Of a stretch of DNA of 4,470 nt, positions 1 to 4,470 are shown in pieces; the stretch's first letter is position 1; each line of letters begins with the position of its first letter. Under the pieces are notes generated by a model, which was given only the letters and a program-made list of their open reading frames with translations, was not told the DNA's origin and did no database searches. The stretch lies in IMG/VR virus record IMGVR_UViG_2698536618_000013. One strand, given 5' to 3'. The position numbers and the translations under genes are program-made. The DNA comes from a virus (Duplodnaviria > Heunggongvirae > Uroviricota > Caudoviricetes).

Positions 1-421
1 TCCAGTCCAGAATACGCAGTTCTTTGATCTGCCCCCGGGAGTTACGGATTTTCAGCACCACCGTATTGCCGTGACGCAGTTTGGCGTTCAGCCACAGTTC
101 AAAAAACTGGATACGATTCTGCTGGGCATTGGGACGACGACAGAGGCGGGCAATATCTCCCCGGCGCGTTTCCCTGCGTATCCCCTGCGCATCCGTCTGC
201 ATAAGACGCAGCCGCATTTTGGCGATATCCTGGGATATCAGCGAAATACATGCAAACACCGCATGAAAGGAGAGGACAGCTTCCGGATCGGCTTTCACGG
301 CCTGCTGCCAGGCGCCGGAAAAGGGCTCAGCCACCGCCTGAAACAGGCTGGTCCAGCCCGCCTCTTTTACATCACGTCCTGATTTCTGGTTTTTTCGGGT
401 TCGTCGCAAAAAGTTCCACAT
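1..421 (-). CDS. Phage portal protein (HK97-type / Phage_portal-like), N-terminal ~140 aa; 3' end runs off the window start
   Basis: Hand translation of the minus strand from ATG at 421..419 gives MWNFLRRTRKNQKSGRDVKEAGWTSLFQAVAEPFSGAWQQAVKADPEAVLSFHAVFACISLISQDIAKMRLRLMQTDAQGIRRETRRGDIARLCRRPNAQQNRIQFFELWLNAKLRHGNTVVLKIRNSRGQIKELRILDW, open to position 1. Not in the ORF track because there is no stop inside the window. An in-frame TAG lies two codons upstream of the ATG, and GGAG sits 8 nt upstream. The pattern (M-x-FxRR start, AV.AC[IV]..IS..IA, RRPN....F.E, GN...I.N..G.I..L) matches my recollection of portal N-termini; this is recognition from memory, not a search. Confidence 0.6.
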   Translation of the reverse strand, partial: MWNFLRRTRKNQKSGRDVKEAGWTSLFQAVAEPFSGAWQQAVKADPEAVLSFHAVFACISLISQDIAKMRLRLMQTDAQGIRRETRRGDIARLCRRPNAQQNRIQFFELWLNAKLRHGNTVVLKIRNSRGQIKELRILDW

Positions 422-632
422 TCGCTATGCTCCGCATCATGTTTCTTTTTCTGACCCGCCGGACGTCGCGCTGTGATGTACTCCGCCTTCATCAGGCGAA
501 CCAGCACCTCCGCACACGGCTGTGCGACATCCCGGATATCCCCGGGCCGGGCATCATGTGTACCCTGCAGATATCGGATTTTTGCCATCAGTTACTGCGG
601 GACGCTCTCACCTCCCGCCCTCCTCATCAGAC

Positions 633-2570
633 TCAGCCGCCGGACGCACTGCCGTAGTTCACACCGGTGATCACAGCCACCGCCGCAGTACGGCGACGAC
701 GCCAGTTGATCCAGCGCTCCGCACGGATGGCCACGCTGCCGGTCTGGAACATGGAAACCAGCTCCACCGGCGACGGTGTGGTGCTGTCGCCGCCCGGCTC
801 AGACTGCATTTCCAGTGACGCTTCACGGGACATATCCACTGCCACACCGCCGTCATCCGCCAGATAAATATCCGGTGCATTCACCAGTACCAGCTGGTCA
901 CCCACATACTGGGAGACAATCACCGGAAGCCCCTGAAAGATCCCGCCCAGCAGGGTCATGTCCGGATATTCCTTCTGACCCAGCGCATTTTTACGCATGG
1001 ACAGCGCCAGGGCATTCGTGCTGGACATCAGCCAGACAGCACCAGTGGGCTGCAGATTTGCCGTCACAAACTGGCCAAACGCGGCCTCGGCATCCGCATC
1101 CGGGTTACCGGTTGATGCCGTGCCCTTCACATCATGGGTGATGGACGCCGGGGAGACATCCGCCACCGCAGCTTTTTTCGGGTCCACAAAGTCTGTGTCC
1201 AGACGCGCCACCACCGCTTCTGCCAGCGCATTACGGACCAGTGCATCAGCTGCCGGACTGGAAAAACGGATCAATTCTTCCGTCAGTACCGCAATGGCCG
1301 ACACCTTCGCATGACTGAAGGTGATGGATTCAAAATCAAACTTCGTCAGGGGTTTTGCCTTACCCTCCCCCACCCAGCCGGCAGCACCGCCGGACACCTG
1401 GGCATGCACGCGGATATTGAACGGCACCTGACGAAGAGCAGGGATCCCGCCCTGACCAAATCGCCCGATAATGGTCTGAGGACGCAGGTAATCAATAAAG
1501 TCCTGTGCGTATTCCTGATATTCAGACAGGCTGCCTGCCCACTGTGGGTCCGTGGTGGTCCCTGCCCCCACCGCCGATTTCAGGACATGATGCAGACGGC
1601 TGTCATCCGGATACTGACGACGGGCCACTTCCAGGGCTTCAGAGCGGACACCTTTAGCCGCGGCCAGTGATTTGGCAAAGCGGGCGAAACCAATCCCCTT
1701 CTCCAGTTTCTGCTCAACACGGATCACCGGCGCTGAAGCCACCGTGGCCACATTCCCGTTACCGGCCTGTTTCACCGGCTGTGCCGTGGCGGCCTTACTG
1801 GTTTCCAGTTCACGCAGACGCTTCAGGTGCGCATCCACCTGACGGATTTCCGCTGCGGTGTTGTCGTAGTGCTCTTCCTCTTCCACATCCAGTGTGCGGC
1901 CTTCCTCTGCGGCTTTGTTCATGATCTCCTCAAGGGAGGCTGCCAGCGCCGCACGCTTGTTTTCAAAACTTTTAATCTGTTCACCAGTATTCATTGCTGA
2001 CTTTTCCTTATGAAAAGAGGTTATTGACTGTGCCGAAGCGCCGGCAGAAGATGCGATTTTCACCACCGGTTTCCGGTTGCCGGACGCGGCAGAAAACGGG
2101 CGGTCGAAATATTTAATGGTCCGGATGGTGCATTCCGCATTCGCGGGCACGGTGACGGCAGACACCTCCATCAGCTCCCAGCGCAGAAAATGCAGTCCGC
2201 CTCCGTCCAGATAAGTGTATTCATGGGGCCGGAAGCCCACAGAAAGCCCCCTGACCAGCCCGGTCTTAATGGCAGCCCAGGCCTCATCCAGCCGGGCTGC
2301 CATCTGGGAGGGCATCCCCGGATCCGGCTTCACCAGCATTGCCGTGATTTCCAGCCCTTCGCTGACCCGGCGTACCGTACACTGCCCCACCGGGCGGGAA
2401 TGGTCATGCTGCCAGAGAAACGGGATCGCACTGCCAAACTCCGCGCCCTCCGGCTCCAGGATGTCACCATCCCGATCCGGAGAAGGCGTTGACGCAATCC
2501 CGGTGATCACCCGTTCATCCTCACTGAAGGATTTCACCGTCAGCAGGGAACAGGCCCGTTTAAGAGTCAC
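633..2570 (-). CDS. Prohead protease (HK97 / peptidase S78-U35 type) – delta (scaffold-like coiled coil) – HK97-fold major capsid protein, single fused polypeptide (~645 aa)
   Basis: ORF track 633..2609 (658 aa). The N-terminal ~160 aa carry protease-like motifs FLWQHDHS (His 55/57) and GLSVGF (Ser 110). A coiled-coil-like segment follows (EQIKSFENKRAALAASLEEIMNKAAEEGRTLDVEEEEHYDNTAAEIRQVDAHLKRLRELE). The C-terminal ~370 aa look like a capsid shell domain (FDFESITFSHAKVSAIAVLTEELIRFSSPAADALVRNALAEAVVARLDTDFVD, ending ...VAIRAERWINW...). I place the start at GTG 2570..2568, 5 nt after AGGAGG (plus-strand CCTCCT 2576..2581), by exact nucleotide identity with the start region of the upstream paralog. 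The track's ATG at 2609 lies inside the paralog's coding sequence, has no ribosome-binding site and would translate through the AGGAGG. Stop TGA at 635..633. Confidence 0.85.
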   Translation of the reverse strand: MTLKRACSLLTVKSFSEDERVITGIASTPSPDRDGDILEPEGAEFGSAIPFLWQHDHSRPVGQCTVRRVSEGLEITAMLVKPDPGMPSQMAARLDEAWAAIKTGLVRGLSVGFRPHEYTYLDGGGLHFLRWELMEVSAVTVPANAECTIRTIKYFDRPFSAASGNRKPVVKIASSAGASAQSITSFHKEKSAMNTGEQIKSFENKRAALAASLEEIMNKAAEEGRTLDVEEEEHYDNTAAEIRQVDAHLKRLRELETSKAATAQPVKQAGNGNVATVASAPVIRVEQKLEKGIGFARFAKSLAAAKGVRSEALEVARRQYPDDSRLHHVLKSAVGAGTTTDPQWAGSLSEYQEYAQDFIDYLRPQTIIGRFGQGGIPALRQVPFNIRVHAQVSGGAAGWVGEGKAKPLTKFDFESITFSHAKVSAIAVLTEELIRFSSPAADALVRNALAEAVVARLDTDFVDPKKAAVADVSPASITHDVKGTASTGNPDADAEAAFGQFVTANLQPTGAVWLMSSTNALALSMRKNALGQKEYPDMTLLGGIFQGLPVIVSQYVGDQLVLVNAPDIYLADDGGVAVDMSREASLEMQSEPGGDSTTPSPVELVSMFQTGSVAIRAERWINWRRRRTAAVAVITGVNYGSASGG

Positions 2571-2598
2571 ATCAGCCTCCTGAAAATAAAAAAACCGC
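1746..2598. repeat. Tandem direct repeat, copy A (853 bp): covers the 5' ~825 nt of the protease–capsid fusion gene plus its AGGAGG site and upstream T-run
   Basis: By-eye alignment with 2602..3454 at a constant offset of 856 nt. 2339..2598 is identical to 3195..3454 (260 bp); 1746..2338 versus 2602..3194 shows roughly 40-45 substitutions and no indels (~93% identity, hand count). Confidence 0.95.
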
Positions 2599-3426
2599 AA
2601 AGGCCACATTCCCGTTACCGGCCTGTTTCACCGGCTGCGCCGTGGCGGCCTTACCGGCTTCCAGTTCACGCAGGCGCTTCAGGTGCGCATCCACCTGACG
2701 GATTTCCGCTGCGGTGTTGTCGTAATGCTCTTCCTCCTCCACATCCAGCGTGCGCCCTTCCTCTGCGGCTTTGGTCATGACCTCCTCAAGGGAGGCTGCC
2801 AGCGCTGCACGCTTGTTTTCAAAACTTTTAATCTGTTCGCCAATATTCATTATGGTCTTTTCCTTATGAAAAACGGTTGTTGACTGTGCCGCAGCGCCGG
2901 CAGAAGATGCGATTTTCACCACCGGTTTCCGGTTGCCGGACGCGGCAGAAAACGGGCGGTCGTAAGATTTAATGGTCCGGATGGTGCATTCCGCATTCGC
3001 GGGCACGGTGACGGCAGACACCTCCATCAGTTCCCAGCGCAGAAAATGCAGTCCGCCTCCGTCCAGAAAGGTGTATTCATGGGGACGGAAGCCCACGGAC
3101 AGCCCCCTGACCAGCCCGGTCTTAATGGCCGCCCAGACCTCATCCAGCCGGGCAGCCAGTTGCGACGGCATATCCGGTACGGGCTTCACCAGTGTTGCCG
3201 TGATTTCCAGCCCTTCGCTGACCCGGCGTACCGTACACTGCCCCACCGGGCGGGAATGGTCATGCTGCCAGAGAAACGGGATCGCACTGCCAAACTCCGC
3301 GCCCTCCGGCTCCAGGATGTCACCATCCCGATCCGGAGAAGGCGTTGACGCAATCCCGGTGATCACCCGTTCATCCTCACTGAAGGATTTCACCGTCAGC
3401 AGGGAACAGGCCCGTTTAAGAGTCAC
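2572..3426 (-). CDS. Prohead protease + delta/scaffold domain protein (284 aa); truncated tandem paralog of the protease–capsid fusion, lacking the capsid shell domain
   Basis: ORF track 2572..3426. GTG start at 3426..3424, 5 nt after AGGAGG (plus-strand CCTCCT 3432..3437). Residues 1-77 are nucleotide-identical to the fusion gene; both catalytic motifs (WQHDHS, GLSVGF) are intact. The ORF runs through the coiled-coil region to ...QAGNGNVA, then reads 9 junction-derived codons (FAVFLFSGG) and stops at TGA 2574..2572, one nt before the fusion's GTG start. Expression is not proven. Confidence 0.7.
   Translation of the reverse strand: MTLKRACSLLTVKSFSEDERVITGIASTPSPDRDGDILEPEGAEFGSAIPFLWQHDHSRPVGQCTVRRVSEGLEITATLVKPVPDMPSQLAARLDEVWAAIKTGLVRGLSVGFRPHEYTFLDGGGLHFLRWELMEVSAVTVPANAECTIRTIKSYDRPFSAASGNRKPVVKIASSAGAAAQSTTVFHKEKTIMNIGEQIKSFENKRAALAASLEEVMTKAAEEGRTLDVEEEEHYDNTAAEIRQVDAHLKRLRELEAGKAATAQPVKQAGNGNVAFAVFLFSGG
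2576..2581 (-). promoter_or_regulatory. Shine-Dalgarno AGGAGG for the protease–capsid fusion gene; it overlaps the last codons of the upstream paralog
   Basis: Plus-strand CCTCCT at 2576..2581, 5-nt spacer to GTG 2570. The paralog's TGA stop (2574..2572) sits inside that spacer. Confidence 0.7.
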
Positions 3427-3454
3427 ATCAGCCTCCTGAAAATAAAAAAACCGC
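2602..3454. repeat. Tandem direct repeat, copy B (853 bp): contains the 284-aa protease/scaffold paralog and its ribosome-binding site
   Basis: Same alignment as copy A. The copies are head to tail, separated by 3 nt (AAA, 2599..2601). Flanking unique sequence is accGTG|GCCACATT on the left (about 1741..1753) and AAACCGC|CGGAGCGG on the right (about 3448..3462). Confidence 0.95.
3432..3437 (-). promoter_or_regulatory. Shine-Dalgarno AGGAGG for the 284-aa protease/scaffold gene
   Basis: Plus-strand CCTCCT at 3432..3437 is AGGAGG on the minus strand, with a 5-nt spacer (CTGAT) to GTG 3426. Confidence 0.7.
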
Positions 3455-3464
3455 CGGAGCGGTT
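3438..3464 (-). terminator. Candidate intrinsic terminator or attenuator between the terminase and protease genes
   Basis: The minus strand reads AACCGC-TCCG-GCGGTT (6-bp stem with 4 GC pairs, 4-nt loop; plus-strand 3449..3464) followed directly by TTTTTTTATTTT, then AGGAGG and the GTG start. The stem is short, so this may be only a partial terminator. Confidence 0.4.
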
Positions 3465-3489
3465 CGTGATGGTTACAGTGTGAACAGGG

Positions 3490-4470
3490 TTATATGAAAA
3501 AAACCGCATATTCTTTCTTTTTCGGTTCCGGGTTAAGGGACATCAGGGAGACCGCATTGAACAGCGCCATCAGCGGGTCAATTTTTCCCCGTCCACTGGC
3601 CTGTTTGGTGATAAGAATGGCGTTACCTTTAGGCTCCACCCGGGCATTGCCGACACACCAGGCCATCAGGGGCTGGTCACCATGCACCAGCACCCCTTCA
3701 GCCAGTTTGCGCTCGGTGGTTTTAATGGCCCCGCCCAGTTTCCAGCCCTGGCTTATCCCCACCACAATTCCGTCGGGGATCCCGGCTTCCGCCAGTGAAT
3801 CCAGAATCTGCCCCACCCCTGACGGGTCAATACCGATATGGTCCAGTAACTCAGCCTCATGAATGCGACGCACATATTCCGCCACTTCCGCCGTGTCATC
3901 CCCGACACGCCGGACAATGGTCATATCTCCACAGGCAACAAGATCCTGAAACCGGGACGCCTCGCTCTTCCGTCGGACCACCGCGGTTTCATGCGCCCAG
4001 GCATGGCCCCAGCCCAGCCATTCGCGGGTCTCCCGGTCACGCCCAATCACATACATCCCCAGCAGATCATCCAGCCCTCCGCCGTCAATCCCCACCGTCA
4101 CCACATCAGCACGACGCAGGATATCGTCCAGGCTGATACAACGGCCCTGCTCTTCCCAGAAATCAGCCCCCGCCCAGCGGTCAGAGCGCAGGGCAAGACC
4201 AATTTCCACATTGGCGTGTTTTGACATGAACCCCCGGAATGTCTCTTCACCGGCTTCCCGGGCTTTACGGTACTCCCGGTACAGAAAGGCCTCATCCACC
4301 GAATAACCGAGATTCGGGTTAACCATGGCGAGATTTTCCATCAGCAGGTGAGCCCCGCTTTCCACCATTTCAGGAGGATGCTCAAAAATCACCGGCAGAA
4401 AGTGCGGATCATGAATTTTGCCGTCACGGACATCCCGGGCGTACTGCAGTTTCTGTCTGAACACCCCGGC
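3490..4470 (-). CDS. terL: Phage terminase large subunit, C-terminal (nuclease) portion; 5' end lies beyond the window end
   Basis: ORF track 3490..4464 (324 aa); the frame stays open to position 4470, so the track's GTG start is an artefact of the window edge. Motifs VTVGIDGGGLDDLLGMYVIGRDRE, IGIDPSGVGQILDSLAEAG and GNARVEPKGNAILITKQASGRGKIDPLMALFNAVSLM resemble the C-terminal nuclease region of Terminase_1-type large terminases, from memory. Stop TAA at 3492..3490. Confidence 0.8.
   Translation of the reverse strand, partial: AGVFRQKLQYARDVRDGKIHDPHFLPVIFEHPPEMVESGAHLLMENLAMVNPNLGYSVDEAFLYREYRKAREAGEETFRGFMSKHANVEIGLALRSDRWAGADFWEEQGRCISLDDILRRADVVTVGIDGGGLDDLLGMYVIGRDRETREWLGWGHAWAHETAVVRRKSEASRFQDLVACGDMTIVRRVGDDTAEVAEYVRRIHEAELLDHIGIDPSGVGQILDSLAEAGIPDGIVVGISQGWKLGGAIKTTERKLAEGVLVHGDQPLMAWCVGNARVEPKGNAILITKQASGRGKIDPLMALFNAVSLMSLNPEPKKKEYAVFFI

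Follow-up and report, generated by a model that had tools for sequence, protein, structure and literature searches.

The head-to-tail repeat at the centre of this window is best read, with a probability that we put at roughly 70%, as two naturally circulating alleles of one gene, and not as the outcome of duplication, divergence and later repair. Judged against their relatives, both copies are ordinary, common and already mosaic population alleles of a single E. coli prophage head gene, and the mosaic most likely predates the juxtaposition of the copies.

The window, i.e. the whole 4470-bp stretch of DNA that was analysed, is an entire contig of the E. coli draft assembly GCA_001285485.1 and contains the head module of an Stx-type lambdoid prophage (terL, a prohead protease-scaffold-capsid fusion gene and the portal gene); a literature search for the assembly and contig accessions found no papers. 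Its features are as follows.

1-421, minus strand: portal gene, N-terminal part, running off the window start (PF04860 Phage_portal, in L086; annotation in relatives)
367-588, minus strand: conserved 73-aa ORF of unknown function (phrog_829; hypothetical protein in relatives)
633-2570, minus strand: intact 645-aa prohead protease-scaffold-major capsid fusion gene with a GTG start (Pfam Peptidase_S78 and Phage_capsid)
1746-2598, minus strand: copy A, downstream, part of the intact gene (offset-856 comparison)
1746-2338, minus strand: divergent 593-bp segment, A allele (99.8% match)
2339-2598, minus strand: identical 260-bp block as present in copy A, a B-family haplotype (comparison with copy B and loci)
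2572-3426, minus strand: ORF of 284 aa that arises from the repeat and joins protease and scaffold-like linker/coiled-coil (Pfam Peptidase_S78; phrog_617 positions 7-264)
2599-2601, no strand: junction filler AAA, templated by neither flank
2602-3454, minus strand: copy B, the upstream one with respect to transcription (codons 1-275, preceded by a 28-nt stretch of 5' UTR that includes an AGGAGG RBS)
2602-3194, minus strand: B-allele form of the divergent 593-bp segment (matched at 100% by many genomes)
3195-3454, minus strand: identical 260-bp block as present in copy B (offset-856 comparison)
3448-3465, minus strand: hairpin resembling a terminator, situated between terL and the head gene (stem of 7 pairs, loop of 4 nt and a T run)
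3490-4470, minus strand: terminase large subunit, C-terminal part, running off the window end (Pfam TerL_nuclease, E 3.4e-10; annotation in relatives)

The repeat and its identity step

Comparison of the window with itself at an offset of 856 reveals a head-to-tail 856-bp repeat made up of 1746-2598, the filler AAA and 2602-3454, whose two arms align over 853 bp free of indels; adjacent copies in the same orientation and the novel junction ACCGC-AAA-GGCC make it, as it stands in the window, a tandem direct duplication. All 43 substitutions between the copies lie within 1782-2338 (the first at 1782, the last at 2338): the divergent 593 bp differ by 7.25%, and 2339-2598 and 3195-3454 do not differ at a single one of their 260 positions. 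The coding strand is the minus strand, with GTG starts at 2570 and 3426, and what is identical between the copies corresponds to codons 1-77 plus 28 nt of 5' UTR, the 18 amino-acid differences being found from codon 78 onward. The initial annotation had described 260 identical bp followed by some 593 bp at about 7% divergence, which is exact, as well as 40-45 differing positions without indels, which brackets the count, and about 17 amino-acid substitutions, which falls one short of it while every example cited is right.

An even spread of substitutions across the 853 bp, named in that annotation as the result that would speak against a step, is not what the alignment gives. The identical tract abuts the divergent tract at a significant breakpoint, 2338|2339: the maximum chi-square statistic places it after 2338 (chi2 19.9, a value reached in 8 of 2000 permutations), and an identical run of at least 260 positions arose in none of 20,000 permutations (hypergeometric P 1e-7). 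The proposal that the step is a signature of recombination is thus supported. Within the divergent body dN/dS is 0.31 and dS 0.16, values that indicate that both alleles are functional lineages. The filler at 2599-2601 parts the copies and brings the period to 856 = 3x285+1, so that their reading frames are offset by one.

Two alleles in the prophage population

Single-copy prophages of at least 20 complete genomes match copy B at every one of its 853 bp. With the terL flank added (2602-4045, 1,444 bp), the prophage of strain 97-3250, likewise single copy, still differs at 0 positions, an identity that stops exactly at the junction. Both bodies are common, the B body being matched at 99% or more by 926 records and the A body by 224. 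Of the 593 sites in the body of copy A, 1 departs from the common A allele, and the capsid 3' flank that follows this body is nearest to two loci of A type, L004 and L005, with 5 differences over 1113 bp; as a whole unit copy A is matched at best at 99.2% in complete genomes, and its part 2037-2598 is identical to the metagenome contig L088. The suggestion that one copy was brought in from a related element is supported in so far as one copy does trace to such an element; copy B represents the common B allele, and the body of copy A the common A allele, of the same prophage gene.

The two alleles can be found in separate prophages of one genome, as in PV15-279 at 2.97 and 3.57 Mb, and they also co-reside in RM8385, 2013C-4538 and other STEC genomes. 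Among 85 single-copy loci we distinguished 37 patterns of a and b states with many breakpoints (the pattern table has 39 rows once the window's own two copies are counted), including recombinant haplotypes whose breakpoints differ from one another, e.g. L003, L015, L029, L083 and L088. Typical A and B alleles differ at 7-9 sites inside the 260-bp block, all of them at 2361-2445, from which it follows that copy A carries a B-type 5' end.

These differences bear on the notion that strong constraint on the 5' end of the gene, in the absence of any recombination, would have kept the 260 bp identical. It is true that 2446-2598 is invariant between typical A and typical B alleles; however, 29 sites of the block vary in the population, the 7-9 differences between the allele types are mostly of synonymous scale, and the dS of the body predicts about 9 synonymous differences per 77 codons, against the 0 seen. 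The variable sites and the allelic differences refute the idea that conservation made the block identical, and we regard this explanation as hardly credible.

Single-copy relatives with the same joint

Two loci that carry the gene in a single copy, L006 from IMG/VR and the metagenome contig L088, display the same joint of A body and B-type 5' end as copy A. Their 260-bp block is identical to that of the window, and they have in common with copy A a rare variant, the 'a' state at 2322, 17 nt from the joint. They lie in different backgrounds, with an intergenic C at the position where the window has G (3457) and a difference at one terL site. The joint is rare, occurring in 1 of the 85 IMG/VR loci and in one metagenome contig, while complete genomes, examined at about 2,900 places, have it at none. 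Since single-copy loci carry it, it is not specific to the duplicated locus, as post-duplication conversion would have it, and its presence beside a different flanking haplotype means that the mosaic exists without any tandem partner; we take it, for this reason, to be most likely the older of the two structures. Collapse of a tandem into L006 and L088 is disfavoured, given that both have the intergenic C and the terL variant and not the window's G.

The initial annotation had pointed to gene conversion or later homogenisation of the 5' end. Spelled out, this reading would have a real duplication after which the A-type block of the downstream copy was overwritten from the upstream one. This would account for the B-type states of copy A at the sites where typical A alleles differ, for the lack of any complete genome pairing an A body with the window's block (99.2% at best), and for the exact identity of the two blocks, which extends to a minority variant at 2373. 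It is nonetheless not needed, for the joint, with the 2322 variant linked to it, already occurs in single copy in L006 and L088, beside another intergenic and terL haplotype, and it invokes one event more than the explanation we prefer; we hold it to be unlikely.

A second alternative supposes a tandem of two B copies in a phage X, followed by one crossover with a typical A phage in the downstream 260-bp block that replaced everything downstream. A single ordinary crossover would then account for the identity of the blocks as well as for the A-linked sequence downstream, and ACCGC does stand at both breakpoints in B-type sequence. Against this, the joint and the 2322 variant would need an origin separate from that in L006 and L088, unless those loci, whose intergenic C stands where the model predicts G, were products of collapse; moreover, searches of complete E. 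coli genomes, phages, IMG/VR, GTDB representatives and JGI metagenomes yielded no B-B tandem. This course of events seems to us quite unlikely.

Proposed history

Under the reading that we prefer, the copies as circulating alleles, one parent, X, would have contributed the B body together with the 260-bp block and, upstream of these, the intergenic G at 3457 and terL, and another, Y, the same 260-bp block with the A body and the A-linked 3' part of the capsid. Parent Y would itself be an older homologous recombinant, an A-type phage whose 5' end became X-like through a crossover somewhere from 2339 to 2360. With X and Y placed head to tail, the shared block would show 0% difference and the allelic body 7%, and no event after the juxtaposition would be required. 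The existence of both alleles, the single-copy mosaics of Y type and the heavy recombination in the population are observed; the order of events is inferred.

A rare joint of Y type stands here beside an X copy that has the same minority 260-bp haplotype. This coincidence counts against the preferred explanation, and conversion after duplication would explain it as well.

The junction

The juxtaposition itself may have arisen by illegitimate recombination, an unequal exchange that really took place at ACCGC and had one of its ends in the terminator hairpin, or through an assembler or scaffolder that chained two paralogous prophage paths of one multi-lysogenic strain; between a real junction and an artefact of assembly we see the odds as about even. 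The right-hand breakpoint, 3454|3455, lies inside the loop of the terL terminator-like hairpin, of which the junction retains the 3' half only (2592-2598). The second possibility, a chimeric assembly, which the initial annotation had also named among the results that would speak against it, is compatible with the allelic explanation of the step; it would have separate prophages X and Y, one path running through terL, the shared block and the B body to end at the first X/Y branch, another starting near the X/Y branch in the intergenic region and running through the shared block, the A body and the capsid, the two being joined end to end by scaffolding or gap closing.

Several observations point in that direction besides the status of the window as an entire short draft contig and the usual residence of the two alleles in different prophages of one genome. 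The exact 39-nt junction has 0 matches in IMG/VR, GTDB representative genomes and JGI metagenomes; in BLAST searches of 5,426 complete E. coli genomes and 50,697 phage records no record covers the 121-bp junction to 80% or more; and the gene is single copy in each of the 1,249 full-length E. coli matches, as in each of the 85 aligned loci. The positions of the breakpoints would suit paths of this kind, and an exchange at the 5-nt microhomology as well. On the left, the end of copy B at 2602 directly adjoins the equivalent of 1745, a SNP that discriminates A from B; on the right, the break lies 2 nt short of the equivalent of the intergenic SNP at 3457, which the filler spans; the upstream end of copy A plus AAA reaches exactly the site that parts X from the Y-like loci L006 and L088.

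Other features argue for a physical junction. The join has neither a shared k-mer nor a run of N, and AAA fits neither flank, so that a pure graph misjoin cannot produce it without reads; nor does the filler correspond to a variant hairpin loop of a relative, being absent from all 17 intergenic haplotypes seen. A 5-nt microhomology, ACCGC, directly precedes both breakpoints in the B-type parent, a coincidence of about 1 in 1000 if the ends were set by SNPs alone. Furthermore, the contig is recorded in 2 samples, and illegitimate fusions of the head gene are known in Mb-scale contigs (P0042, P0018 and P0024).

The head gene and the junction ORF

Peptidase_S78 and Phage_capsid domains are both found on the single 645-aa ORF, which belongs to phrog_617 (E 7e-258) and whose exact protein is on record as WP_053892878.1, with 11 entries in UniRef100. 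The GTG start agrees with the 1938 nt that RefSeq gives for the CDS of relatives, and a 658-aa version extended to an ATG has no exact match on record, in agreement with GTG at 2570 as the real start. A search of PDB sequences returned a distant capsid match alone (E 0.0025) and no solved close homologue. In phages 1717, YYZ-2008, 2851 and BP-4795, to which the window is 95-97% identical at the DNA level, the phrog_617 head protein is annotated as major head protein/prohead protease.

The 284-aa ORF at the junction ends in an 8-aa out-of-frame tail (FAVFLFSGG), and its TGA lies 1 nt ahead of the GTG of the full-length gene, overlapping the RBS region of that gene. The exact protein was not found in a collection of 15 billion proteins, and a homologue search gave no protein of matching length and tail. 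Were the tandem real and expressed, a stand-alone protease-plus-scaffold gene of this kind might be imagined as a natural intermediate in the fission of the fused head gene into separate protease and capsid genes of the HK97 kind, with subfunctionalisation open to copies that are already allelic, an idea that we consider very unlikely.

Implications and comparison with known systems

The step is a textbook signature of allele shuffling in lambdoid prophages, here resolved to parental haplotypes, and it matters little beyond bookkeeping. The practical lessons are that single-copy relatives should be checked before a sharp identity step in tandem copies is read as gene conversion, and that short draft contigs from multi-lysogenic STEC strains may present two prophage alleles one after the other. 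An artefactual join would mean inflated gene counts and spurious truncated ORFs; a real tandem would be a one-off structural variant that places a free protease-scaffold protein beside the fused gene, of modest interest for the stoichiometry of head assembly.

With regard to known systems, the window resembles HK97-family fused head modules in that protease, scaffold-like segment and major capsid are united in one polypeptide, and departs from them in the additional upstream protease-plus-linker ORF brought about by the repeat; in HK97 itself protease and capsid are separate genes. ACCGC before both breakpoints and the position of one of them in the terminator loop resemble what a tandem duplication mediated by microhomology, or a template switch at a hairpin, would show, but a clean event of this type leaves no filler, whereas AAA is inserted here and the copies are allelic, not identical. 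False duplication in assemblies, a term used for diploid assemblies in which two diverged alleles or haplotypes are put in series, is matched by the short draft contig, by alleles known from separate loci and perhaps by breakpoints at, or 2 nt from, the edges of shared sequence, and not by a join that lacks an N gap and has 3 nt of AAA next to a 5-nt microhomology. The step itself resembles lambdoid prophage mosaicism, i.e. homologous recombination among co-resident or co-infecting phages as in the Hendrix/Hatfull mosaic model and in inter-prophage recombination in E. coli O157, with which the window shares two allele classes and many recombinants, co-residence, and sharp transitions from 0% to about 7%, while differing from it in that the two alleles stand in tandem on a single contig and not at two loci.

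Results

All genes in the window lie on the minus strand, in the following order:

3490-4470, minus strand: terminase large subunit gene (terL), C-terminal part (Pfam TerL_nuclease)
3465-3448, minus strand: terminator-like hairpin
between the hairpin and the remainder of the 645-aa ORF, minus strand: 856-bp unit in two copies
633-2570, minus strand: 645-aa ORF with Peptidase_S78 and Phage_capsid domains, matching phrog_617 along its full length
367-588, minus strand: conserved 73-aa ORF (phrog_829, no assigned function)
1-421, minus strand: start of the portal gene, last in gene order

The window is 95-97% identical to the head modules of Stx-converting lambdoid phages, among them 1717, YYZ-2008 and 2851, and prophages carrying this module occur in 1,255 of 5,426 complete E. 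coli genomes. The 73-aa ORF sits between the capsid and portal genes, overlapping the portal start by ~55 nt, in all relatives. The 2.6-kb portal gene bears the PGAP label 'frameshifted' (pseudogene) in every complete-genome relative inspected (loci L001, L003, L084, L085 and L089), a recurrence that could reflect a conserved programmed frameshift or a common annotation problem rather than decay.

Self-comparison of the window at an offset of 856 aligns 1746-2598 (copy A, downstream, within the intact gene) with 2602-3454 (copy B, upstream) free of gaps; the 43 mismatches run from 1782 to 2338, and 2339-2598 is exactly identical to 3195-3454. The abrupt step, which the initial annotation had described as 260 identical bp followed by ~593 bp at ~7% divergence, is borne out by a maximum chi-square breakpoint after 2338 and by permutation (an identical 260-bp run in 0 of 20,000); the coordinates, counts and example substitutions of that description agree with the self-alignment and the codon comparison. 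The actual starts are GTG at 2570 and 3426, as in the RefSeq annotation of relatives, so that the identical block comprises 28 nt of 5' UTR with an AGGAGG ribosome-binding site plus codons 1-77, and codons 78-275 hold 18 amino-acid differences (dS 0.16, dN 0.05, dN/dS 0.31). Our comparison adds to the initial annotation a 3-nt filler, AAA (2599-2601), between the copies. Past the junction the upstream copy is out of frame and meets a TGA stop 1 nt ahead of the intact gene's GTG, read-through of the junction giving a 284-aa protease-plus-linker ORF.

The two copies belong to different allele classes. In complete E. coli genomes, 926 records match copy B across its divergent 593 bp at >=99%, many at 100%, and at least 20 genomes have a single-copy prophage that is 100% identical to the entire 853-bp copy; in strain 97-3250, not one difference is found from 2602 across the intergenic region and terL to 4045 (1,444 bp), and the identity stops precisely at the junction. 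The same strain's locus (L089, NZ_CP027599.1) has a capsid CDS at locus positions 1747-3525 that measures 1779 nt instead of the usual 1938; the 159 bp it lacks correspond to approximately 688-835 of the window. Copy A, in its divergent 593 bp, represents a second class (224 records at >=99%, top match 99.8%), and the capsid part downstream of it comes nearest to L004 and L005, two loci of A type, with 5 differences over 1113 bp. Both alleles occur together in single STEC genomes, in different prophages, as in O157:H7 PV15-279 (A at 2.97 Mb, L001; B at 3.57 Mb, L002). As to which copy is the local one, these matches of copies and flanks indicate that each is, relative to its own outer flank; the window resembles a join of two phages, to which a B-type phage, X, similar to the 97-3250 prophage, contributes its upstream half and an A-type phage, Y, its downstream half.

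Typical A and B alleles differ at 7-9 sites within the 260-bp block, all in 2361-2445, and copy A consequently has a B-type 5' end; none of the complete E. coli genomes matches the whole of copy A above 99.2%. Mosaicism is extensive in the single-copy pool, where 85 loci resolve into 37 patterns (43 sites differing between the copies plus 29 variable block sites) with breakpoints throughout the unit. L003 (E. coli C325), which matches the window as a whole better than any other complete genome, is itself an A/B recombinant with its crossover between 2036 and 2107, in the divergent segment (1746-2338, deduplicated coordinates), which illustrates that breakpoints vary among genomes. Two IMG/VR loci, L027 and L030, show a 12-nt gap when aligned with a single-copy form of the window (3614-bp alignment).

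Two single-copy loci have the joint exactly as in copy A. The IMG/VR contig L006, found again as L087, combines an A body with a 260-bp block identical to the window's. In L088 (metagenome contig ERZ857775 NODE-3658), sites 1782-2036 are in the B state and sites 2107-2338 in the A state, and the locus has zero differences from the window across 2037-2600. Both loci also show, 17 nt from the breakpoint, the rare A state of site 2322, at which typical A alleles carry a third base. Relative to the window's upstream flank, both have C instead of G at the intergenic SNP 3457, and differ at one terL site.

Discussion

The joint of L006 and L088 and that of copy A are related by descent. We rejected the notion that these loci are simple collapse products of the tandem, which would carry G at 3457. 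Given this common descent, the single-copy mosaic most likely predates the juxtaposition of the alleles: the A body with a B-type 5' end would have arisen in single copy first, and the alleles of X and Y would have come to lie side by side later. Gene conversion following duplication is a possible cause of the identical block, but it is not required and needs one extra event. Of the initial interpretation, recombination with a related element thus stands, whereas homogenisation after duplication becomes unnecessary in the light of the single-copy loci.

The tandem itself is a singleton of uncertain reality. Its junction was not found elsewhere in complete E. coli genomes, phage records, IMG/VR, GTDB representatives or JGI metagenomes, nor its 284-aa product in a 15-billion-protein collection. 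A real event is favored by a 5-nt microhomology (in B-type relatives, left boundary ACCGC followed by GGCCACATT and right boundary ACCGC followed by CGGAGC), by a right breakpoint within the hairpin loop of the terL terminator, a plausible template-switching site, and by further illegitimate fusions of the head gene on megabase-scale contigs. Conversely, an assembly join of two prophages' alleles is suggested by the window being, in its entirety, a tiny stand-alone draft contig (CYGF01000095.1, 4470 bp, assembly GCA_001285485.1), by the two alleles normally coming from two prophages of one strain and by breakpoints at the expected branch points of such a strain's assembly graph: the end of copy B adjoins an A/B SNP at 1745, and the upstream end of copy A, with the filler, reaches the intergenic SNP distinguishing X from Y-like loci. 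Neither explanation accounts for the AAA filler. By a rough estimate rather than a computed test, such SNP adjacency under a real event is about as improbable as the microhomology under an artefact; the prior would then favor an artefact, an advantage offset by a join that shows neither an N run nor a shared k-mer, leaving odds of near 50:50.

Other assemblies encode chimeras (proteins P0047, P0116 and P0042) joining protease parts to unrelated phage or host proteins. The partners are the C-terminus of minor tail protein L, attached after residue 121, the N-terminus of a lysozyme, placed ahead of residue 21, and a tail like that of the type II secretion protein GspL; such chimeras are either deletions in decaying prophages or more misjoins at a multi-copy locus.

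Were the tandem real, late-operon transcription would continue through terL and past its leaky terminator, whose stem is not re-formed at the junction, and the 284-aa protease-plus-scaffold ORF would be translated to its TGA, with possible re-initiation 1 nt on at the fusion gene's GTG, since that gene retains an AGGAGG of its own. Head assembly should remain functional, as the intact gene is unaltered, and surplus free protease-scaffold protein may be neutral or mildly disturbing.

In four genomes an IS1 lies inside the fusion gene (matches H96-H99, e.g. NZ_CP027331.1 653013-654639), whose parts are then annotated separately as 'HK97 family phage prohead protease' and 'phage major capsid protein'. 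The window's 645-aa gene is of the known fused protease-capsid type, and the identity step is the ordinary, already known signature that lambdoid prophages leave when they shuffle homologous segments.
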